From Gemmatimonadota bacterium (GTDB lineage: Bacteria > 4572-55 > J002): a stretch of DNA of 20,000 nucleotides. The translations under genes and the position numbers were made by a program. The notes beneath the pieces are model-generated. The model was not told the DNA's origin, did not search any database, and saw nothing but the letters and a program-made list of their open reading frames with translations. Below are positions 10,130 to 20,000 of this stretch, piece after piece (positions within the stretch are counted from its first letter, which is position 1; each line of letters starts with the position of its first letter). The stretch spans positions 45,378 through 65,377 of the forward strand of contig RFFQ01000113.1 in the NCBI GenBank assembly GCA_003697105.1. Direction: 5' to 3'.

Positions 10130-10960
10130 TTATAGCTGGTGATGTTTGCTTTGCCGGGGGATGGGCAAATATTCCACACCGCCACTCTGCCGTCGCATCG
10201 GTTGGGGATAGAGCGTCATCAGGTGGAGGATATCCGCGGGCATATCGGTATTGACCGGAAGCCCAAGCGAGCGGGCTTCTTCCGCCGAGATGGGGTAATC
10301 ATGTGTCCATGTACCACTGGCTAATCGGGTGGCGAGTTCTTTCGCGGTGGTTTCGTCCATTGTTCGTCGTAAGAGGTCGGTTGTTGCCGCTTCGAGTTGC
10401 TGGATTGCTTTGCGCCCGATGTCCGCCATCATGAGGGTTTCATCTTCGACCTCGGCAACCGGTTTCTGGTCAACTACTTTCAGGAAGGAGGCGGCGGGAT
10501 ATTGACCCAGTTGGGGATCAATGGGTCCCAAAACAGAATGTTTACACATGACGATTTCATCCGCGGCTAAGGCAATCAGCGTGCCCCCCGACATGGCATA
10601 ATGAGGGACAAAGACCGTCACTTTACCCTTGTGAGTTTGAATAGCACGGGCAATTTGCAATGAAGCCAATACCAATCCCCCCGGGGTATGCAGTACGATG
10701 TCTAGCGGAACGTCATCATCGGTCATGTGGATCGCACGCAAGACTTCCTCCGAGTCATTGATGTCGATGAAGCGCATCAACGGAAAGCCGAGTAAACTCA
10801 TGGTTTCCTGCCGGTGAACGAGGAGAATAACCCGCGAGCCGCGCATCTTTTCAATTTGGGCAATCTTTCGCGTTCGCATCGCATCCAGATATCGCCGTTG
10901 TAAGGTGGGTTGTAGCGCTGAAATGATAAAGAAAAGCCACAGAACATCTATCACACCCAT
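10130..10960 (-). CDS. Membrane-anchored SDH-family (ClpP/crotonase-class, DUF114-type) serine protease
   Basis: N-terminal hydrophobic helix; LHTPGG, YAMSGGTLIALAADEIVM, LGPIDPQ, WTHDYPI; GGAGG SD; overlaps the rhomboid stop by 10 nt. Confidence 0.88.
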   Translation of the reverse strand: MGVIDVLWLFFIISALQPTLQRRYLDAMRTRKIAQIEKMRGSRVILLVHRQETMSLLGFPLMRFIDINDSEEVLRAIHMTDDDVPLDIVLHTPGGLVLASLQIARAIQTHKGKVTVFVPHYAMSGGTLIALAADEIVMCKHSVLGPIDPQLGQYPAASFLKVVDQKPVAEVEDETLMMADIGRKAIQQLEAATTDLLRRTMDETTAKELATRLASGTWTHDYPISAEEARSLGLPVNTDMPADILHLMTLYPQPMRRQSGGVEYLPIPRQSKHHQL

Positions 10961-11715
10961 GGTGATCCTCCTGATGAGCGATAACCGTTTGGAAAAAAAC
11001 CATAACGCCCTTCGTCGGCATAAAACCGGCGGTAGGTGCGTTCGGATCGTTTAATTAGCGGGGTTAATATCCAGCCGGCGAGAAATCCGCCGATATGTGC
11101 CCACCACGCAATGCCACCGGTGGTTGGAGGCAATAGTAGCGAAAACACGCCGGGGATGATCTGGGTCATAAACCAGAAGAAGGCAAAAAAGATGGCGTAC
11201 ACTTCCACAAAAACCGGAAAAATAAATACCGGAATGACCATCACCAGCCGTGCCAGCGGGAACAGACGCACATAACAGCCGATGACTCCCGCAATTGCGC
11301 CGGAGGCACCTAACGCCGGAACAACCGAATGCGCATTTAACACGGCATGAGCCAGAGATGCCGCTATCCCACATAACAGATAAAAGCAGAGAAAACGCAT
11401 GGACCCAAGTCGATCTTCCACCGCGGGTGCAAAAATCCAAAGTGTCCACATGTTCAAAATCAGATGTATCCAGCTGCCATGCAAGAACATGTTGGAGAAA
11501 AACGGGAGATAGTCGAATAGGGTGTGGGGCGGTGCGACTCCCGCGAGATGCCCAAAGTAGCGCGCCGGAATCAGGGCAAATACGGCAAGAAACCGCTCCA
11601 GCACCGGTGGTGAAAGGGATGCCTGAAACATAAAAATCATCCCGTTTAGGAATATTAGCATCCACGTAATCAGGGGTGGGTAACGGGTGGCTACACCATC
11701 TTGAATCGGAAACAT
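10951..11715 (-). CDS. Rhomboid family intramembrane serine protease
   Basis: MFLHGSWIHLILNM, VEDRLG, GASGAIAG (catalytic Ser), WWAHIGGF (catalytic His); several TM segments. Confidence 0.94.
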   Translation of the reverse strand: MFPIQDGVATRYPPLITWMLIFLNGMIFMFQASLSPPVLERFLAVFALIPARYFGHLAGVAPPHTLFDYLPFFSNMFLHGSWIHLILNMWTLWIFAPAVEDRLGSMRFLCFYLLCGIAASLAHAVLNAHSVVPALGASGAIAGVIGCYVRLFPLARLVMVIPVFIFPVFVEVYAIFFAFFWFMTQIIPGVFSLLLPPTTGGIAWWAHIGGFLAGWILTPLIKRSERTYRRFYADEGRYGFFPNGYRSSGGSPWV

Positions 11716-11819: not shown

Positions 11820-11950
11820 TGATAAAACCCCATCCATTTTCCATGATTGGGCTATTGTGGATGCCTTGAAAAGGTTGTATATTGGGCGTCCACTCTAGCG
11901 AATCCATTTTGCGATCTCTATCACAACATTTTTATGGCAAACTCGGGCTT

Positions 11951-13750
11951 ATGATTTCTCCCTATTTTCAATATAAAGATTTTATGCAACAGCATTATGG
12001 TACTCAACTTCACCGGATTCCACTGGATATGGGTGATAGTTGTCCCAATCGCCTGCCGGATGGCTCCGGGGGGTGTACGTTTTGTAATCTGCGGGGCAGT
12101 AGAGCGATTCAAACCCTCGGTTATGAAACGGTTTATGAGCAAGTTGATGCCGCTATCCGCTTTGCCCAGAGACGCTACCGGGCGACCCAATTTATCGCTT
12201 ATATTCAGGCGTTTTCGGCGACTTTTGGGGCGAAGCGGCAACAGCAATATCTGGATTTGCTTTCCCGCTTCCCTTTTAGAGCGGTAGTCTTTGGCACCCG
12301 GCCGGATTATTTAACCCGATCCGCTTATGCTTTTTTGCAACAGCTTAATGAGTCGCTTGAAGTGTGGGTGGAGCTTGGTGTGCAGACCGTCCATGATCGC
12401 ACTCTCCGGCGGATTAATCGGGGCCATGATTGGAGCGCCAGTGAACGGGCTATCCAGAAGCTACATGACACCGGTCTTCGGGTTGCCGTCCACGTGATTT
12501 TGGGGTTGCCCGGCGAAACTCCCGAAGACTTCCAATATACTGCCAATACCCTGGCGTCACTGCCGATTTCTGGGGTGAAAATCCACAATCTGCATATCGA
12601 AAAAGGTACGACTCTCGCTAAAGAACATGCGCTTACGCCGGTGCCTACCTTGATGGAATATGAATACGCCGAACATCTCATGGATTTTATCCGGCGGATG
12701 CCGCCAGACATCCCCATTATGCGTATCCATACGGACACGTTGCCGGAAGAACTCATTGCGCCCAAATGGCATATGGATACCCAACAGTTTAAGGCGTATG
12801 TAATTCGTCAAATGGTGTATCGTCAGTGGCGGCAAGGTGATTTATACCGCCATGGCTCGCCCTCTATGCCCATTGATCCTGAACCACCCGCGCCGGTCGC
12901 TACGGCGGATGGCTCCATTACCTTCTGGAGTGCCGATTATAAAGAACATTACCACGCAGCCGTCGGTGCGCGAACCGAAGCGTTGGAGAAGTTTATCCGG
13001 CCTTCTAACTTAATCGACCGATTAAAAAAAGGGGATGTCCGGTTGCTGGATGTTTGCTTCGGGTTAGGGTATAACAGTTTAATGGCGCTGGATGTGGCTC
13101 TTGCCACCAATGGTAAAGAACCGCTCCATGCGTTGGAGATTGTGGCGTTAGAAATGGATAAACGGGTGGTGCAAGCGGCGAGTCAGGCGCTTATCCCCTT
13201 AGAGACGGATTCATTTTGTTGGCAAACGGCTTTGCACGACCTTGTAACCCACGGTCACTGCACCGTAAGCCCGTCGGCTTCCATTGATATACGCTGGGGC
13301 GATGCACGTTTTACCGCTTCTCAACTTCAACCCCATAGCATTGATATTATCTATCTGGATGCGTTTTCGACACAGCGGAACAGTGAACTCTGGACGGTTG
13401 ATTTTTTCCGACAGTTACGAAATCTGATGAAAGCGGATGGCGTTCTGATTACGTATTGCGCGGCGATTCCGGTGCGAAGCGGTCTTCTTGCCGCGGGTTT
13501 TCAGGTGGGAGAAACACCGCCGGTGGGGCGAGACCGGGGCGGAACTATCGCCGCCATCCAAGCGAACCATATTCCGCGACCTCTTCCGGCGAATGATCGT
13601 CATCTCATCGAGCACACGACCCGCGGGATTCCCTACCGCGACCCGTATGGCGTCTGGACAAATACGGAAATCTTAAGGCACCGGGAAGCGGAGATTTTAA
13701 AGTATAAGCAGGCTCGTGCATCGAACAGAATCGGGGCGGAGGTTTCATGA
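11951..13750 (+). CDS. Fusion of a TIGR01212 (YhcC/YtqA-MnmL type) radical SAM domain and an MnmD/MnmC2-type tRNA mnm5(s2)U34 methyltransferase domain
   Basis: N-half CPNRLPDGSGGCTFC, GTRPD, VWVELGVQTVHDRTLRRINRGH, HVILGLPGE, GVKIHNLHI; Pro-rich linker; C-half TADGS-x-T...EHYH...GA, LDVCFGLGYN, LDAFS...ELWT, TYCAA. Start set at ATG 11951 from typical family length. Confidence 0.88.
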   Translation: MISPYFQYKDFMQQHYGTQLHRIPLDMGDSCPNRLPDGSGGCTFCNLRGSRAIQTLGYETVYEQVDAAIRFAQRRYRATQFIAYIQAFSATFGAKRQQQYLDLLSRFPFRAVVFGTRPDYLTRSAYAFLQQLNESLEVWVELGVQTVHDRTLRRINRGHDWSASERAIQKLHDTGLRVAVHVILGLPGETPEDFQYTANTLASLPISGVKIHNLHIEKGTTLAKEHALTPVPTLMEYEYAEHLMDFIRRMPPDIPIMRIHTDTLPEELIAPKWHMDTQQFKAYVIRQMVYRQWRQGDLYRHGSPSMPIDPEPPAPVATADGSITFWSADYKEHYHAAVGARTEALEKFIRPSNLIDRLKKGDVRLLDVCFGLGYNSLMALDVALATNGKEPLHALEIVALEMDKRVVQAASQALIPLETDSFCWQTALHDLVTHGHCTVSPSASIDIRWGDARFTASQLQPHSIDIIYLDAFSTQRNSELWTVDFFRQLRNLMKADGVLITYCAAIPVRSGLLAAGFQVGETPPVGRDRGGTIAAIQANHIPRPLPANDRHLIEHTTRGIPYRDPYGVWTNTEILRHREAEILKYKQARASNRIGAEVS

Positions 13751-14712
13751 CAACGGCGACCTCATTTTGGATTGTGGCCCCCCAAACCGGCCAATTTCGC
13801 TCAGAATCGTTGCCCCCTTTAGCCCCAAATGAGGTGGGTGTACGCACCCTATATAGCGGGATTAGTCGCGGTACCGAACGGTTGGTTTTTAAGGGCGATG
13901 TACCGGTTTCCCAATATCCGGTTATGCGGGCACCATTTATGGCAGGAGAATTTCCTTTTCCGGTTAAGTACGGCTATTGTAACGTGGGAGTGGTAGTGGA
14001 AGGTGTCCCAGCATGGCAGGGAGCACGGGTATTTAGCTTGTTTCCACATCAGGATTATTTTCATCTTCGCACAGATGATCTGCTGCGTATCCCGGAGACG
14101 GTACCCTCCGAGCGAGCCGTTTTGGCGGCAAATATGGAGACTGCACTAAACAGCATTTGGGATAGCGACCTGCGGATTGGCGACCGGGTTGCCGTCATCG
14201 GTGCCGGGGTGGTGGGGTGCTTAATTGCCTATCTTGCCGCCCAAATTCCAGCGGTCAATGTGACCCTGATCGATACATATCCGCCACGGCAGACCATTGC
14301 CGATCACTTGAACATCCCATTTCAAACACCGGATCAGGTGCAGAGCGAGTTTGACCGAATTTTTCACGCCAGCGGCCATCCGGCAGGGTTACAAACGGCG
14401 TTACAGTGGGCGGCACCAGAAGCGCAAATTATCGAAGCGAGTTGGTTTGGAGATACAGAAGTGTGTTTACCCCTTGGGGAGGCATTTCACTCCCGGCGGT
14501 TGCAGGTTATTGGTTCGCAAGTGGGATCGGTTGCCATCTCTCGCCGGACACGATATACTTCCCGGCAACGCTTGGCATTAGCACTCTCACTTCTCGCGGA
14601 TGACCGGCTGGACGCGTTGTTCACGGATCGTATTGCCTTTGCGGATTTACCGGAGCAGTATCCCCGCTTGTTGAATGCCGCGTCCGTACTGGGCATCATT
14701 GTGAAATATTAG
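13747..14712 (+). CDS. MDR-superfamily (alcohol dehydrogenase-like) oxidoreductase
   Basis: GroES-like N-domain YSGISRGTE...FPVKYGYCNVG; Rossmann VAVIGAGVVG; ATGA overlap with the upstream gene. Confidence 0.85.
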   Translation: MTTATSFWIVAPQTGQFRSESLPPLAPNEVGVRTLYSGISRGTERLVFKGDVPVSQYPVMRAPFMAGEFPFPVKYGYCNVGVVVEGVPAWQGARVFSLFPHQDYFHLRTDDLLRIPETVPSERAVLAANMETALNSIWDSDLRIGDRVAVIGAGVVGCLIAYLAAQIPAVNVTLIDTYPPRQTIADHLNIPFQTPDQVQSEFDRIFHASGHPAGLQTALQWAAPEAQIIEASWFGDTEVCLPLGEAFHSRRLQVIGSQVGSVAISRRTRYTSRQRLALALSLLADDRLDALFTDRIAFADLPEQYPRLLNAASVLGIIVKY

Positions 14713-14718
14713 GGATAT

Positions 14719-14766
14719 GAGTTGGGGAGTTTAGGAGTTTGGGAGTTTAGAAGTTAGGGAGTTAAA
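14719..14766 (+). repeat. Degenerate 8-bp tandem repeat, six units, consensus GAGTTTRG
   Basis: GAGTTGGG GAGTTTAG GAGTTTGG GAGTTTAG AAGTTAGG GAGTTAAA fills the intergenic gap up to the ATG. Confidence 0.85.
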
Positions 14767-17700
14767 TGGATATATCAAAGCAGATCGAACAGTGGCAACA
14801 CCAGCCGGGGATAGAAACGGCAGTTGGCTTATTGGAAGCAATGGAAACAACGCCGGTGCAAGTTGAACTTGCTCCCAGTTGCCTTCGGCTTACCGGTAAA
14901 AGTGATTTTTTACGAAACCTGCCGCAATATGAGTTACGGTTGCGTTGGGCACAAACGGCTTTACGCTGGATTCGAGAAACTCCGTTTAAATTGGTCGATT
15001 TATTCACAATGCGGGTAAAAGAATACCCAAACCGGGTATTGTTTCAGGAGATGCGCGGTACGATGCCGCACTACTGGACGTATCGCCAAGTTGATCGGAT
15101 GGTGAAGGAGATTGCCACAGCGTTCTATACGGTTGTACCGGCGTCTCCGCGGGTCGCGATTTTTGCGGAAAACTGTCTTGGTGGGGCATGTGCAGACCTC
15201 GCCTGCCTGTTTTATGATATTTTAGATACACCGCTCAATATTCATTTTGATGATGAGACCTTGCTCGATATTTTGGATCGGTTGCAGATTAACATTGTGG
15301 TGACCGATACAGAGAGCCGTTGCCGCCGCTTGGAGAATCTCCGGCGAAAGACTGCCCGTCCTTTTGTAGTATTCGTTGTTCAACGGCAGATCAAGCTTCA
15401 TGAAAATGATACCTATTTTTTGGACGAATATTGTAAGCATTTAAGCCAGGAGCAGATCGACACCCAGCTGGCAAACCGTCCCCGCCGGGATTTGCGCGAT
15501 GTTGCGACCGTGATGTTCACTTCGGGAAGTACCGGTAAACCCAAAGGGATTGCCTTTTCGGAGTACCACTTGGTCAGCAAACGTTTTTGTCGTGCCGCGG
15601 CTTTGCCCAAAGTGGGGGATAACGAGGTGTTACTCTGCTATTTACCGCTTTTCCATACGTTTGGGCGATATTTGGAAATGCTGGGCACGATCTATTGGGG
15701 GGGTACGTATGTTTTTACCACGAATACTTCTGCTGAGAATCTGCTCTCCTTGTTCCCGCAGGTCAACCCAACCGGGTTTATCAGTGTGCCGATCCGGTGG
15801 GTCCAGTTATACGAAAAATGTTTGAAAAAGATAAAACATGAAACCGATTTGCAGGCGGTACAACTAGCCGTTCGTTCCGTGATCGGACACCGGTTGCGGT
15901 GGGGGCTTTCCGCCGCGGGGTATCTTGACCCCAAAATCTTCCGTTTTTTCCAGCGGAATGGCGTGGATTTATGTAGCGGGTTTGGTATGACGGAAGCCAC
16001 CGGCGGCATTACCATGACACCGCCCGGTAATTATGTGGAAAATGCCGTGGGGATTGCCTTACCGGGTATCGATATCCGGTTAACGGATAACGGCGAAATG
16101 CAGATCAGTGGGCATTACATCGCCCGGTATTTAGATGATTTGCCGAGTGCCAGTGCCGCGATCCCCTATCCAGAGGAGGAGGTGTACTGGCTCTCGACCG
16201 GTGATCTGTTTCAAGTGACCCCCGAAGGTTTTTACCAGATTATTGACCGCACAAAAGATATTTACAAAAATAACAAAGGGCAAACGGTCGCTCCGGTCAA
16301 AATGGAGAAAAAATTTACCGGAGTCCCGGGAATTAAACGGACCTTTTTAGTCGGGGATGGCAAACCGTACAATGTCCTCTTCATTGTACCGGACGAAACA
16401 AGCGACTTCATGCAGAAATTTCGCACGGAAGAGAGCCGCCGAGAGTATTTTCAACAATTGATTACCACCGCGAATCAAAAATTGGCGCCGTATGAACGGG
16501 TAATCAATTTTGCCATTTTAGACCGGGATTTTGATCTCAAACGGGGGGAACTGACCCCCAAAGGTTCGTTCAATCGCAAAATCATCGTGGCGCATTTTAG
16601 CCACTTAATCGATGAACTTTATCAGCGTGAATATGTAGAATTGGCGTGCGATGAGGTCTGTGTGCGGATTCCACGCTGGTTTTTCCGGGATCAAGGTATG
16701 TTAGAAGGGAGTATCTCCATCTCTCGCATGGGGTTGCACAATTTGACGACCGGTAAAATGTTACCTTTAAAACGGGTGGCGGAGTCGGGTACAACTCTTA
16801 TTGGGGATTTAGAATATACGGTCACGAATGGCGTCATTGACTTAGGGCTATTTTCCCGCCAACCCCGCCTCTGGGTCGGAAATCCGGCACTGATCGCATT
16901 TTGCATCTGTAAAGAGGGCTGGGATGTACCGCTGGATGGGGTTTCGGCGCACCTTTTTCGTCCGTGGGAGATTGCCCGGCAATATGACCCAACGGAGTTA
17001 CCAGTACCGCAAAAAGTGCGGGATGCCGAGTTGCTTCGCATCAATCGGCTGGTCTGTACGGCAATTTTGGGTCCTACGGAACTGGCGTATTCAGCGTTGG
17101 AAGAACTTAGTACGGCGTTAACAGAGGTTGATAGCCGTTTAGGTGATGTCATCCGCCGCCGGTTGGAAACCTTAGCCCGCCACCCAGACGAAGATATCCG
17201 CTGTTTCGCGTATCAAATTTTGTTACTCGATGAGCCGGTCTCCAATTACAACCTAGCTTTTCCGGCATTTATGCAATCTGGCTTATCTTTTCTCAATAAA
17301 AAATCGATAGAAAATATTGCCTTTGGTAAGATGGAAAAAAAGCGGCTGGAAGCGCTTCGCCAGCGGCTGTTTAGTTACCGGATGCAACTAAATTGGCCCC
17401 TCAATGAGAGCATGCGCCAACAGTTTGAGCGCATCTTCCAACTGCTGGTCAGTTTTGTGGACCAACATCCGGAATTTTACCATCCCTTGCGGGCAGAACT
17501 GGCAAGTTGGGTTCTCCACCGCAACGACCGGGCTTTGGCTGAGATTGCAGAACGGTATTTTAATGAATTGTATCAGGTTTATCAGAGCAAGTTTGAGGGC
17601 GACCTCGATACTTACCAGCAGGCAGATTGGGACGAAAAAATTGTATTTGATGATGGTTTGGTGGCGGATGAAATTCAGCGCATAAAAGCCGTTTTCCGGG

Positions 17701-19400
17701 CGGCGCCGTTCCTCAAACATTCCGTGATGCTCGCATTTGATGAACGCCAATTTCATCTGGCAGATGTCCCGCCGGGTGGAATTTGGGTCTCGCGGGTAGA
17801 ATCGGGACATTATCGTGACCAATACCGGGTCTGTATTAATACCATCCATGACGCCCATTTTGATCTACAACTCGTACTCAGCGACGACCTCGATCAAGCG
17901 ATGACCAAAGAATCCGTTTACTGGCATGTGGCGATCAGCGGGTATCCTTACGGGCAATCGGTGTTACCGCGAATGGGGTGTTTTGATACCGGAAGTGGCG
18001 CTTTGGCAACACGTTATACCGGCGAACTGAGCGTGTGGGAGAAAATCCGCGAGTTTTCCAGTGCTCGTATCCCCGGCAAGACGTTTCCGGGACTCAATGC
18101 GTGGCGAAAGTTGTTTATTCAAGCCTTAGCCGGATTTTATCGCGGCTGGCACAATAGCGGCTTTCAGATTGTGCCGGGCGTCATCTCGCCCAATAACATT
18201 GCCGTACCGGAACTCGATTTTTTGGAAAGTTCCACGATCTTGTCCATGATCGGCTGGCAAGAGTACACCAACACGCTTTCCCTCATTAAACCGATGCTGC
18301 AAAACTTCTACTTCAAGACGGTCGCTCACTATCCCTGGTGCAAAGATGATTTGCATGTGGATTGGATATTTGATGCCTGCCAAGAAGCGTTAGGACGGGA
18401 GCCGGCGCAGGAATTTTTCGCCCAACTCCAGACGGAACTCAGCGGGGAACGGCTGGTATGGCTGGATGGTACGCCATTGGGACAATGCCTAGAGCGGTAT
18501 CTCAAGGATAACGAGGATTTCTATTACCTGCCCCTTGCCGTCCGCAAAGCCATTGAGTGGTACAAAACGTGGGAAAAAACGAATGAGGCAATTCACTCCA
18601 CTGCCCGGAAAGAAGTGGTGTTGGAAGTGTACCGACTTTACCGGATCCATCGCTTCCCTGAAATCAATCGCTACTACTTGTACCGGTACACCTATTTTTC
18701 ACCGATGAATGACAAAGTCCATCAGGCGTTTGACCAGCTTCTTCAAGCCATGCAACGAGAACCTCAAAAACCGGCGATTGAGTTCTTGGAACTCTCTGAC
18801 CTGCAAAGTACCTTAACCCGTAATGAAGACCGCGATGTGTTCAGCCAGATGGTCTTCCCCCATGAGACGCCCCATAAATTTGATGTTCTCAAAATTGGAG
18901 ATAGCGACCACAAACAAATTTTAGTGCATTCGTATATCACCGACCGGTATGGGGAAACGTATGTCTTCCGACGACCCACTGAACCGGCCGAAATTGGCCA
19001 ATTTTACCAGTTATATTTCCCCGAAGTTATCTCAGAGCAAGACCGGCATTACATTGTGATCGACTCGCAGGAACGCGTGGTCGGTGGGATTCGTTATAAA
19101 TTGATGGAAGACCATATTGCCCAAATTGACCGAACCATCGTTTCCGCCACTCTGCGCGGACGGGGTTTGGGTCAAGCGATGGTGGAAAGTTTCTGCCGGC
19201 GGATGGAAAGTCAAGGAGTTCAACTGATCAAAACGCACTTCTTTTTACACAACTTTTATGAAAACTGTGGGTTTGTGGTCGATCACCAATGGGGTGTTCT
19301 GGTGAAGATACTGGTGCCCCAACCGGACAAATTAACTACCGAAGATTATCTCGATACCACCATAGCTGAGGATGGTGAGACGAAACCTATACGGGTTTAA
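14766..19400 (+). CDS. 1544-aa multidomain protein: long-chain acyl-CoA synthetase-like AMP-binding domain, uncharacterised helical and kinase-like middle, C-terminal GNAT
   Basis: FTSGSTGKPKG, YLPLFHTFG, GFGMTE, TGD, IDRTKD...KGQTVAP, GELTP in aa about 70-620; V-x-x-x-LRGRGLG and FYENCGF near the C-terminus; one uninterrupted ORF. Confidence 0.88.
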   Translation: MDISKQIEQWQHQPGIETAVGLLEAMETTPVQVELAPSCLRLTGKSDFLRNLPQYELRLRWAQTALRWIRETPFKLVDLFTMRVKEYPNRVLFQEMRGTMPHYWTYRQVDRMVKEIATAFYTVVPASPRVAIFAENCLGGACADLACLFYDILDTPLNIHFDDETLLDILDRLQINIVVTDTESRCRRLENLRRKTARPFVVFVVQRQIKLHENDTYFLDEYCKHLSQEQIDTQLANRPRRDLRDVATVMFTSGSTGKPKGIAFSEYHLVSKRFCRAAALPKVGDNEVLLCYLPLFHTFGRYLEMLGTIYWGGTYVFTTNTSAENLLSLFPQVNPTGFISVPIRWVQLYEKCLKKIKHETDLQAVQLAVRSVIGHRLRWGLSAAGYLDPKIFRFFQRNGVDLCSGFGMTEATGGITMTPPGNYVENAVGIALPGIDIRLTDNGEMQISGHYIARYLDDLPSASAAIPYPEEEVYWLSTGDLFQVTPEGFYQIIDRTKDIYKNNKGQTVAPVKMEKKFTGVPGIKRTFLVGDGKPYNVLFIVPDETSDFMQKFRTEESRREYFQQLITTANQKLAPYERVINFAILDRDFDLKRGELTPKGSFNRKIIVAHFSHLIDELYQREYVELACDEVCVRIPRWFFRDQGMLEGSISISRMGLHNLTTGKMLPLKRVAESGTTLIGDLEYTVTNGVIDLGLFSRQPRLWVGNPALIAFCICKEGWDVPLDGVSAHLFRPWEIARQYDPTELPVPQKVRDAELLRINRLVCTAILGPTELAYSALEELSTALTEVDSRLGDVIRRRLETLARHPDEDIRCFAYQILLLDEPVSNYNLAFPAFMQSGLSFLNKKSIENIAFGKMEKKRLEALRQRLFSYRMQLNWPLNESMRQQFERIFQLLVSFVDQHPEFYHPLRAELASWVLHRNDRALAEIAERYFNELYQVYQSKFEGDLDTYQQADWDEKIVFDDGLVADEIQRIKAVFRAAPFLKHSVMLAFDERQFHLADVPPGGIWVSRVESGHYRDQYRVCINTIHDAHFDLQLVLSDDLDQAMTKESVYWHVAISGYPYGQSVLPRMGCFDTGSGALATRYTGELSVWEKIREFSSARIPGKTFPGLNAWRKLFIQALAGFYRGWHNSGFQIVPGVISPNNIAVPELDFLESSTILSMIGWQEYTNTLSLIKPMLQNFYFKTVAHYPWCKDDLHVDWIFDACQEALGREPAQEFFAQLQTELSGERLVWLDGTPLGQCLERYLKDNEDFYYLPLAVRKAIEWYKTWEKTNEAIHSTARKEVVLEVYRLYRIHRFPEINRYYLYRYTYFSPMNDKVHQAFDQLLQAMQREPQKPAIEFLELSDLQSTLTRNEDRDVFSQMVFPHETPHKFDVLKIGDSDHKQILVHSYITDRYGETYVFRRPTEPAEIGQFYQLYFPEVISEQDRHYIVIDSQERVVGGIRYKLMEDHIAQIDRTIVSATLRGRGLGQAMVESFCRRMESQGVQLIKTHFFLHNFYENCGFVVDHQWGVLVKILVPQPDKLTTEDYLDTTIAEDGETKPIRV

Positions 19401-19577
19401 CCGCTTTATTTGCCATAACTTGCCTGCTTTTCAGGCGTTGCGATGATTCTGATGGCTGGTGGACTTGTCCCGGGCTTGGTGATGAAATCATTCCGTCTAT
19501 TATATGGCGTATCCAACCGGATTCAAACTCGTGACTTATCTTATCTTATTTTTTTGAAACCCCGGTAAAAGTTGGTC

Positions 19578-19606
19578 TTGATTTTTTTTGATCTCTGTGT
19601 TATTAT
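19578..19606 (+). promoter_or_regulatory. Candidate sigma70 promoter (extended -10) for the Calx-beta gene
   Basis: TTGATT-N17-TATTAT with TG-n before the -10; AT-rich context. Confidence 0.55.
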
Positions 19607-19736
19607 GATTGCTATCAATCCGCGATTTTTGCATTCTGCACTGCTCACCCCCCCCTCGTATAAATCTAAAAATCCAATATGTTTTTTCAAATCGTTCCTC
19701 TTCTATTTATCTTTCTTCCAATATAAGGAGGCAGGT

Positions 19737-20000
19737 ATGTCAACTTCTAGGTTTTCATTTATATTCGTAGTCGCTCTGTTGCTGGGGCTATTTGGCTTTT
19801 CACAGGTTCAGGCAGTATCATCAGCGTCACTTTCCATTGCGGATAGTAGCGCCGTTGAGGATTCTGGTACGCTAAGTTTTCGGGTGACGCTTAGTGCGGC
19901 GGTTGCTGGTGGGGTAACTGTTAATTACAACACCACTTACGGGACGGCGACCTCCGGTGATTTTACGCCGGTTAGTAATGGTGTGCTGACGTTTAGTCCT
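19737..20000 (+). CDS. Secreted/surface protein with signal peptide and Calx-beta domain (3' truncated by the window edge)
   Basis: TAAGGAGG SD then ATG; MSTSRFSFIFVVALLLGLFGFSQVQA signal peptide; LSIADSSAVEDSGTLSFRVTLS...VTVNYNTTYGTATSGDF...GVLTFSP matches the Calx-beta pattern; open to the window end. Confidence 0.85.
   Translation, partial: MSTSRFSFIFVVALLLGLFGFSQVQAVSSASLSIADSSAVEDSGTLSFRVTLSAAVAGGVTVNYNTTYGTATSGDFTPVSNGVLTFSP

Follow-up and report, generated by a model that had tools for sequence, protein, structure and literature searches.

What might a protein do that carries on one chain both the type of enzyme that makes acyl-CoA and the type that spends it? Acylation by GNAT-family enzymes normally draws on the cellular acyl-CoA pool, and the question is raised by a giant gene in a 20,000-nucleotide stretch of Gemmatimonadota DNA (contig RFFQ01000113.1, hereafter the window, numbered from its first letter), in which a GNAT shares its chain with an acyl-CoA-making type of enzyme. 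The gene is a single open reading frame (ORF) at 14766..19400 of the forward strand, where all features of the protein described below are encoded; it starts with ATG and encodes 1544 amino acids (aa) followed by a stop codon, and the ORF and its translation bear out what an earlier, sequence-only reading of this DNA had proposed. We conclude that its product represents a real, conserved and uncharacterised enzyme family in which known kinds of parts are joined in a new combination.

A conserved fusion with two enzyme-like ends

Relatives of the giant protein are both numerous and long. Of 8000 candidates scored in a word-index search, 1123 proteins reached E <= 1e-3, and the 119 non-self relatives among the matches listed are 1380-1590 aa in length and 46-55% identical, with a query coverage of 87-100%; their database names are generic only ("GNAT family N-acetyltransferase", "AMP-binding protein", "long-chain acyl-CoA synthetase"). 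When 1.84 billion cluster representatives were searched with a profile built from the core of the protein alone, 423 matched at E <= 1e-3, of which 206 reached E <= 1e-30. Complete representatives from this search span 1470-1710 aa, and the core always lies at about residues 620-1460. When 12 of the representatives were scanned for domains, all six of at least 1196 aa were found to carry AMP-binding, AMP-binding_C_3 and GNAT, including ones that are only 25-29% identical. Because full-length relatives, the 25-29% identical clade included, keep the ligase together with the GNAT, the fusion is genuine and conserved, and homologs are not always split into separate genes, as the sequence-only reading had allowed they might be. 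An assembly chimera is rejected by the same full-length relatives, which keep all three parts. Natural split forms are disfavored by the start sites of ten shorter forms that we inspected, each of which begins within the ligase C-subdomain or where it ends, as truncated gene calls do; there may still be a rare true split.

The family is broadly spread and patchy in its occurrence. A scan of one genome per species (185,579 genomes) confirmed at least 479 relatives among 599 pattern matches. The best 80 loci come from Bacteroidales, Prolixibacteraceae, Kapaibacteria, Ignavibacteriaceae, Zixibacteria, Gemmatimonadota, Fibrobacteraceae, Eisenbacteria and Acidobacteriota/Aminicenantes, and the phyla spanned are Bacteroidota, Ignavibacteriota/Kapaibacteria, Zixibacteria, Gemmatimonadota, Fibrobacterota and Acidobacteriota (all names as deposited). 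A maximum-likelihood tree of 74 rows, comprising the window and 73 loci (the 7 of 80 loci whose longest ORF is under 1300 aa were left out), groups the sequences largely by phylum. Around the window's sparsely sampled lineage the gene occurs in 3 of 31 genomes, counting the window's own, which has one copy; an even sample of the phylum of locus L059 yielded 11 carriers in 201 genomes. A full-text literature search, in which the family DUF6206 was also sought, found no paper on this architecture, although most subscription journals lie outside its coverage and the result is not proof of absence. The combination is also missing from the published classes of multidomain GNATs as outlined in the sources cited below, and the earlier statement that it is not recognizable as a characterised architecture holds to that extent.

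The ligase occupies the N-terminal part of the chain. Pfam assigns AMP-binding to aa 82-446 (15009..16103; 169.5 bits against a cut-off of 29.9, E 1.3e-49) and AMP-binding_C_3 to aa 504-622 (16275..16631; 46.4 bits against 20.8), which confirms the adenylate-forming domain that had been placed at aa 70-620 or thereabouts. Enzymes of the ANL superfamily are marked by a P-loop, TSGSTGxPKG, by the motifs GxGxTE and TGD, and by a hinge, DRxKD. The large N-domain of the giant protein, which is delimited by Pfam, the family alignment and Foldseek, holds TSGSTGKPKG and GFGMTE; the C-terminal subdomain is seen both by Pfam and in the AlphaFold model. In the alignment of 70 family members from which all column counts are taken (47 core-clade and 23 divergent-clade sequences), T252, K260, E410, D480, R495, K497, K501 and E514 are invariant and concentrated in the ligase motifs. 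Apart from one column, A10, which is taken up below, the other residues of the adenylation and thioesterification motifs are likewise invariant, down to 25% identity, and the ligase is the best-conserved part of the protein. Foldseek recovers the two-domain ANL fold (E 3.6e-26, template-modeling (TM) score up to 0.81), and the target-normalised TM of the ligase model is 0.78-0.81 against 4CL, MenE and benzoate-CoA ligase. With its motifs intact and its predicted fold that of the ANL enzymes, the ligase looks catalytic.

The model also suggests which step of the reaction it portrays. The C-subdomain is oriented as in luciferase entry 4g37, the 'second catalytic conformation' (root-mean-square deviation (rmsd) 4.3, TM 0.78), whereas entry 4g36, the 'adenylate-forming conformation', fits worse (rmsd 11.1, TM 0.64); 4CL entry 5bsr, with AMP and CoA, shows the same pattern as 4g37 (rmsd 4.6). 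Going by the rmsd values against PDB entries that pair conformations of a given enzyme, then, AlphaFold puts the predicted C-subdomain in the thioester-forming and not the adenylate-forming orientation.

The kind of acid that is activated is harder to read. The giant protein resembles long-chain fatty-acyl-CoA ligases and the adenylation domains of carboxylic acid reductases (CARs) in that these give its best sequence matches and in the AMP-binding_C_3 type of its C-subdomain. Its top NCBIfam match is NF004837, long-chain-fatty-acid--CoA ligase (5.5e-42, 143.7 bits against a cut-off of 476), and its PDB sequence matches are the CAR adenylation domains 6oz1, 5msp and 5mso (4e-18 to 4e-16). It differs from both groups in lacking a carrier or reductase domain, in the displacement of its A10 lysine and in missing the curated NCBIfam cut-offs by far in all 25 models listed for it, those of FadD type included. 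As had been predicted, no carrier-protein, condensation or reductase Pfam family matches anywhere in the 1544-aa protein at E <= 0.1. Two more specific identities were considered and rejected. The acetyl-CoA synthetase model TIGR02188 gives the ligase only 21.8 bits against a cut-off of 724.95, and a canonical Acs (981.3 bits) is present on the same contig (C185:11674-13542), some 47 kb before the giant gene, which rejects the giant protein as an Acs replacement. A malonate-type ligase with a GNAT-fold decarboxylase, as in MatB/MatA, was rejected by the lack of any malonyl-CoA-decarboxylase family match. A second Acs-like gene of the same genome lies on contig C71.

At the other end of the chain, the GNAT domain extends over aa 1372-1519 (18879..19322) and is modeled with the GNAT fold. 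Acetyltransf_1 scores 43.1 bits over aa 1402-1503 (cut-off 20.7), and four GNAT Pfam models in all exceed their cut-offs within aa 1402-1506. The acyl-CoA-binding motif RGRGLG reads intact in the translation at aa 1464-1469, with the coordinates (19155..19172) that had been given for it, and follows the family pattern R/K/Q1464-x-x-G1467-x-G/S/A1469, G1467 being present in 69 of the 70 sequences. Tetrahymena GCN5 is the top PDB sequence match (E 2.5e-4), and protein acetyltransferases rank top among the GNAT matches in a structure comparison with VIA-align, at 13-17% sequence identity. Q1453 aligns with the position in GCN5 that we take to be the catalytic Glu. In contrast to GCN5/PCAF, the giant protein has its conserved acidic residue at 1455, two positions further on, which is D or E in 64 of the 70 sequences. 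From the motif and this acidic residue, the GNAT appears to be catalytic as well.

The core between the two ends

The sequence-only reading had left some 780 aa between the ligase and the GNAT unassigned, and at the level of sequence this stands. No Pfam or NCBIfam family covers aa 623-1400, and in 33 homologous middle regions there is no Pfam match below E 3e-4 and no recurrent family, the best, TetR_C_10, appearing in 4 of 33. Searches of the core against PDB sequences gave no match either with phmmer (best E 0.59) or with a profile of 33 sequences (best E 0.035, over a helical stretch of 49 residues), and a language-model search with the whole core reached scores of only <= 0.87. What did not stand is the impression of a region without discernible parts: AlphaFold2 models it confidently as a beta domain, then a helical repeat and lastly a kinase-like domain with two lobes. 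One model covers aa 621-1544 (47 sequences; mean pLDDT, AlphaFold's per-residue confidence, 84.3; pTM, its counterpart for the whole model, 0.75) and the other, md166ee845da2, aa 1-1200 (70 sequences; pLDDT 87.3, pTM 0.74). The two agree on the order of beta domain, helices and two-lobed unit, to which the former adds the GNAT and the tail.

The beta-rich domain, which has no assigned family, is predicted at aa 623-731 (16632..16958). It is followed at aa 754-991 (17025..17738) by an all-helical domain of twelve helices resembling HEAT repeats, which includes RRRLETLARHPDEDIRCFAY and is indicated by the model, by Foldseek and by a weak HEAT_2 match in one relative, P0230. The two-lobed unit occupies aa 1005-1363 (17778..18854). 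In the AlphaFold2 model its N-lobe is beta-rich and contains one helix, and its C-lobe is helical; Foldseek and language-model neighbors point to the same kinase-like assignment. When the aa 621-1544 model was compared with the PDB by Foldseek, the matches listed were all PI3K p110-gamma or Vps34 and covered the helical and kinase domains together. The best, 5t23, has E 3.7e-6 and a probability of 1.00 over 559 aligned columns, and the listed entries range from 556 to 607 columns. As in these lipid kinases, the giant core is modeled with a helical repeat first and a two-lobed kinase-like domain after it.

Other comparisons temper this picture. The PI3K/Vps34 matches have TM scores of only 0.19-0.33 and an rmsd of 14-17 A, which counts against a kinase fold, and these entries fall outside the VIA-align top 50, which GNAT matches filled. 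PI3_PI4_kinase (PF00454) has no match in the giant protein at E <= 0.1 and is absent among the listed families (25 of 28) for the 33 cores at E <= 1. A language-model search with aa 990-1370 alone returned DUF6206 at 0.94-0.95 (16 of 30 hits), with ABC1/RIO1, Kdo, APH, WaaY and Pkinase as further neighbors at 0.92-0.93, which we treat as a lead only. Alignment of the kinase-like region with 25 APH proteins (PF01636) by hhalign gave a probability of 0.2% and E 0.28-0.32, like control regions of the same protein. On balance we think that aa 1005-1363 probably has a kinase-like fold, as the models predict, and that a kinship to PI3K specifically is less secure.

The residues of the putative active site differ between clades. 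In a catalytic-loop-like stretch recognized from column counts, IVPGVISPNNIAVPELDF (aa 1135-1152, 18168..18221), we assigned the kinase Asn and metal-binding Asp columns to N1144 and D1151 from our own reading of the model and the alignment. N1144 occurs in all 47 core-clade sequences and in 14 of the 23 divergent-clade ones, and D1151 in 67 of 70 overall. The position of the catalytic Asp, five residues before N1144, is occupied in the window by V1139 and is Asp in only 1 of 47 core-clade sequences, as opposed to 12 of 23 in the divergent clade, where 10 of 23 keep the full Asp-Asn-Asp set. The spacing from the Asn to the metal-binding Asp is about 13 residues in PI3K and protein kinases, whereas it is 7 in the giant core. 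The giant core thus departs from PI3K/Vps34 in this spacing, in the lack of a PI3_PI4_kinase match, in the missing catalytic Asp of the window and in its low TM scores. We read the clade pattern as that of a kinase-type active site, ancestral or lineage-specific, that appears to have degenerated in the window's clade. Lineage-specific loss of the catalytic Asp would offer a natural system in which to study how a kinase fold changes into a scaffold.

Gene neighborhood and possible functions

A survey of gene neighborhoods among the homologs, as the earlier reading had suggested, revealed a link to citrate synthase in part of the loci. The counts refer to the best 80 related loci, those of the core clade, for which more than 3 kb is available upstream in 58 and downstream in 55. 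Citrate synthase lies in the flanks of 17 of the 80, aconitase in 10 and an Iso_dh-family dehydrogenase in 14, for 23 loci in all, and the family labels of these tricarboxylic acid (TCA) cycle neighbors were confirmed by Pfam on examples. At least four arrangements occur. In L001 and L004, which are the closest relatives of the window, citrate synthase lies 179-424 nt upstream in divergent orientation, whereas in L006, L017 and L029 it is convergent and 105-268 nt downstream. In L008, L009 and L011 it lies upstream on the giant gene's strand, with a UPF0047 gene separating the two, and it is also upstream in L036. In a Bacteroidales block, citrate synthase and aconitase share one strand and face the giant gene, while the dehydrogenase follows the giant gene by 25-204 nt. 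Of eight loci from the divergent clade, which was sampled via a different search, six have a citrate synthase gene of the same orientation immediately upstream (gaps of 140-2138 nt), and at a seventh locus pyruvate:ferredoxin oxidoreductase is 1 kb away. In all five carrier genomes checked, the citrate synthase beside the giant gene is the sole copy of the genome. A scan of nearest ORFs covered 107 of 129 rows, the 22 rows of the aconitase/dehydrogenase block being left out as known. At single loci of other lineages the giant gene adjoins fumarase, GTP-PEP carboxykinase, an ATP-citrate-lyase-like protein, citrate/dicarboxylate transporters or a PEP-synthase-regulator kinase.

We tentatively favor the view, to which we give somewhat less than an even chance, that the giant protein is a self-supplying acyl-transfer enzyme or regulator whose own ligase makes the acyl-CoA that its GNAT spends, an activate-and-transfer scheme suggested by the motifs and the models. 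It would be a cytoplasmic enzyme of four modules that produces acyl-CoA for immediate use within the same chain. The ANL domain, to judge from its intact motifs and fold, would adenylate a carboxylic acid and thioesterify it to CoA, probably as something other than an acetate-specific Acs-type enzyme. The GCN5-like GNAT would then move the acyl group to an amine and regenerate CoA, with the net effect that ATP and the acid drive N-acylation. Since it is protein acetyltransferases that come nearest in structure, a lysine or the N-terminus of a protein is the most probable acceptor. The 740-aa core of beta domain, helical repeat and kinase-like unit may hold the two catalytic ends together and could serve as a scaffold that binds the acceptor or senses a nucleotide or metabolite, like the regulatory domains of Pat-type acetyltransferases. 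Gene neighborhood suggests that the enzyme might act where acetyl-CoA enters the TCA cycle, with citrate synthase and its partner enzymes as obvious candidate targets or beneficiaries. Such a chain would couple ATP and free acid directly to acylation, with CoA as only a catalytic shuttle, and its repeated siting beside the sole citrate synthase gene provides a concrete and testable target.

Several observations weigh against this reading. When the giant ligase is aligned with five further ligases from its genome, the A10 column, which holds the catalytic lysine in four of the five (as GKI or KKI), is occupied by S601 of the loop TPKGSFNR (aa 597-604, 16554..16577), and it is Ser or Thr in 69 of the 70 family members. 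K599, two residues before this column, is Lys in 69 of 70, and R604 is present in 70 of 70. Because the canonical lysine column is Ser/Thr, adenylation may be impaired or may depend on K599. The link to the TCA cycle has its own weak points: the window has no TCA gene near the giant gene, the citrate synthase of its genome lying on another contig (C135), and 57 of the 80 loci have no citrate synthase, aconitase or Iso_dh neighbor. Because the positive loci are confined in the tree to Bacteroidota and the window's small clade, few independent events are likely to underlie the link. Finally, 13 of the window's 14 neighbor proteins have no hit in the 80 loci, and the remaining one, a radical-SAM protein, recurs in 2 of 80.

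Known couplings of ligases with GNATs bear on how the parts could work together. By analogy, the closest functional counterpart of the giant protein is the AcsA-AcuA complex of Bacillus subtilis, in which an AMP-forming ligase is coupled to a GNAT and the acyl-CoA product of the one is the substrate of the other (PMC11910552). As described for the AcsA-AcuA and Acs-Pat pairs, however, the partners are separate proteins, the ligase is an acetate-specific Acs and the target is the canonical catalytic lysine, K549, whereas the giant protein has a fused, non-Acs ligase, 740 aa from its GNAT, with Ser/Thr in the lysine column. A self-regulating ligase, in which the fused GNAT acylates a lysine of the ligase C-subdomain when acyl-CoA accumulates and so shuts the enzyme off while the kinase-like core senses energy, would be the direct counterpart of these pairs and is unlikely in our judgment. 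GNAT regulators classically target AMP-forming ligases, AcuA forms a tight complex with AcsA and acetylates its catalytic lysine according to the available accounts (PMC11910552, PMC11255334), and multidomain GNATs are said to sense energy and nutrient cues through their regulatory domains (10.1101/2024.11.12.623305); the near-invariant K599 in the A10 loop could provide the acceptor. That lysine is nevertheless off the canonical column, in a TPKGSFNR loop and not the GK form of the four same-genome ligases, and the textbook form of a built-in regulator is weakened because a Pat/AcuA-type target lysine is displaced in this way. The conserved 740-aa scaffold would also be a large investment for a feedback switch. 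Moreover, with a canonical Acs (981 bits against 725) encoded in the genome and only 21.8 bits for the giant ligase, the latter is not the acetate-activating enzyme known to be so regulated.

A different kind of rival is a small-molecule amide synthase, whose GNAT would N-acylate an amino acid, a polyamine or a lipid head group with the acyl-CoA made by the ligase and whose kinase-like domain would bind, or in the divergent clade phosphorylate, the same small molecule. The resistance protein AAC(6')-APH(2''), a fusion of a GNAT and a kinase that act on one small aminoglycoside substrate, provides a precedent. Small-molecule GNATs score near protein GNATs in the comparisons (YhbS 15.3, IAA acetyltransferase 14.6, aminoglycoside and spermidine acetyltransferases about 13), the language-model neighbors of the kinase-like part at 0.92-0.93 are mostly small-molecule kinase families (APH, Kdo, WaaY, ABC1), and the Asp-Asn-Asp set is complete in those 10 of 23 divergent relatives. 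We nevertheless regard this as rather unlikely: no recurring biosynthetic or transport genes for such a product lie beside the giant gene, its recurring neighbors are housekeeping TCA genes, and it is protein acetyltransferases that top the GNAT matches. The boldest version of the acyl-transfer idea, which we consider a long shot, is a new type of bacterial protein acyltransferase that makes its own acyl donor and in which a prokaryotic scaffold related to the helical-kinase unit of PI3K/PIKK proteins would recruit citrate synthase or other TCA-entry enzymes for GCN5-type acylation. It would echo the pairing of GCN5 with the eukaryotic pseudokinase scaffold TRRAP/Tra1. If it were true, the levels of ATP and free acid would directly set the modification of the entry point to the TCA cycle, and the divergent clade with Asp-Asn-Asp would be a dual kinase-acyltransferase.

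Regulated lysine acetyltransferases offer a final comparison. Bacterial enzymes of this kind have been sorted into five types, of which I and II carry an inactive NDP-forming synthetase domain, III has small effector-binding domains, and IV and V consist of the GNAT only; an AMP-forming ligase with a kinase-like core is absent from the scheme as outlined in these sources (PMC11254643, 10.1101/2024.11.12.623305). Pat/PatZ (class I, type I/II) are described as having an inactive NDP-forming domain of the succinyl-CoA-synthetase-like, ATP-grasp kind (PMC11254643). The giant protein instead has an AMP-forming ANL domain with intact motifs and a kinase-like core, and the Pfam families CoA_binding, Succ_CoA_lig and ATP-grasp have no match in it at E <= 0.1. 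It could still be a Pat-like acyltransferase in spirit if a non-catalytic ANL domain sensed ATP, AMP or acyl-CoA allosterically while the GNAT used the cellular acyl-CoA pool. The missing canonical A10 lysine would be in line with such a role, the inactive CoA-synthetase-like domain of type I/II enzymes is described as 700-900 aa long (PMC11254643), and the regulatory domain of PatZ is reported to bind acetyl-CoA and ATP (10.1101/2024.11.12.623305). The invariance of the motif residues across 70 sequences is unexpected for a mere binding module, and we think this explanation improbable.

Flanking features and other genes

The remaining parts of the giant gene lie at its margins. Its leader (14719..14765) contains 5.6 copies of an 8-nt repeat unit (GAGTTTGG-like) at 14719-14763, and an AGGGAG Shine-Dalgarno-like box within the last copy stands 5 nt before the ATG. 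An N-terminal helical extension is predicted at aa 1-81 (14766..15008), with pLDDT 57-61 for aa 1-30 and higher values beyond, and the C-terminal tail (aa 1520-1544, 19323..19397; pLDDT 26-29) is predicted to be disordered.

Upstream on the same strand, the gene at 11882-13750 encodes a 622-aa fusion of MnmL/YtqA, the radical-SAM protein mentioned above (TIGR01212, 225.9 bits against a cut-off of 180), to an MnmC2-type methyltransferase domain (NF033855, 109.5 bits, below the cut-off of 136). Its last 4 nt are shared with the gene at 13747-14712, which encodes an MDR-type dehydrogenase with a weak BchC-like match. An operon of these two genes with the giant gene was rejected because they recur in only 2 of 80 and 0 of 80 loci, respectively. 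Genes on the opposite strand encode rRNA methyltransferases, ferritin, PGI and an M32 peptidase, among others. Also on that strand, the gene of an SDH-type ClpP-like serine protease and that of a rhomboid protease (10130-10960 and 10951-11715) overlap by 10 nt, and with the M32 carboxypeptidase gene that comes next after the pair they form a small protease cluster. Downstream of the giant gene, an open-ended ORF on the forward strand (19572-20000) has a Calx-beta match of 23.8 bits, below the Pfam cut-off of 27; the window ends where the contig ends.

A few recurrent neighbors in related loci can be noted as well. In L115, L116, L117, L120 and L121 of the divergent Bacteroidota clade, a gene for an amine-oxidase-type FAD protein precedes the upstream citrate synthase, and in L115, L117 and L121 squalene/phytoene synthase comes before the FAD protein, suggesting genes of carotenoid type. 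A GntR-family regulator adjoins the giant gene in four Aminicenantes-type loci (L024, L045, L054, L079), and in four Acidobacteriota loci (L014, L015, L021, L043) a 148-aa HTH_3 protein is encoded directly downstream on the opposite strand.

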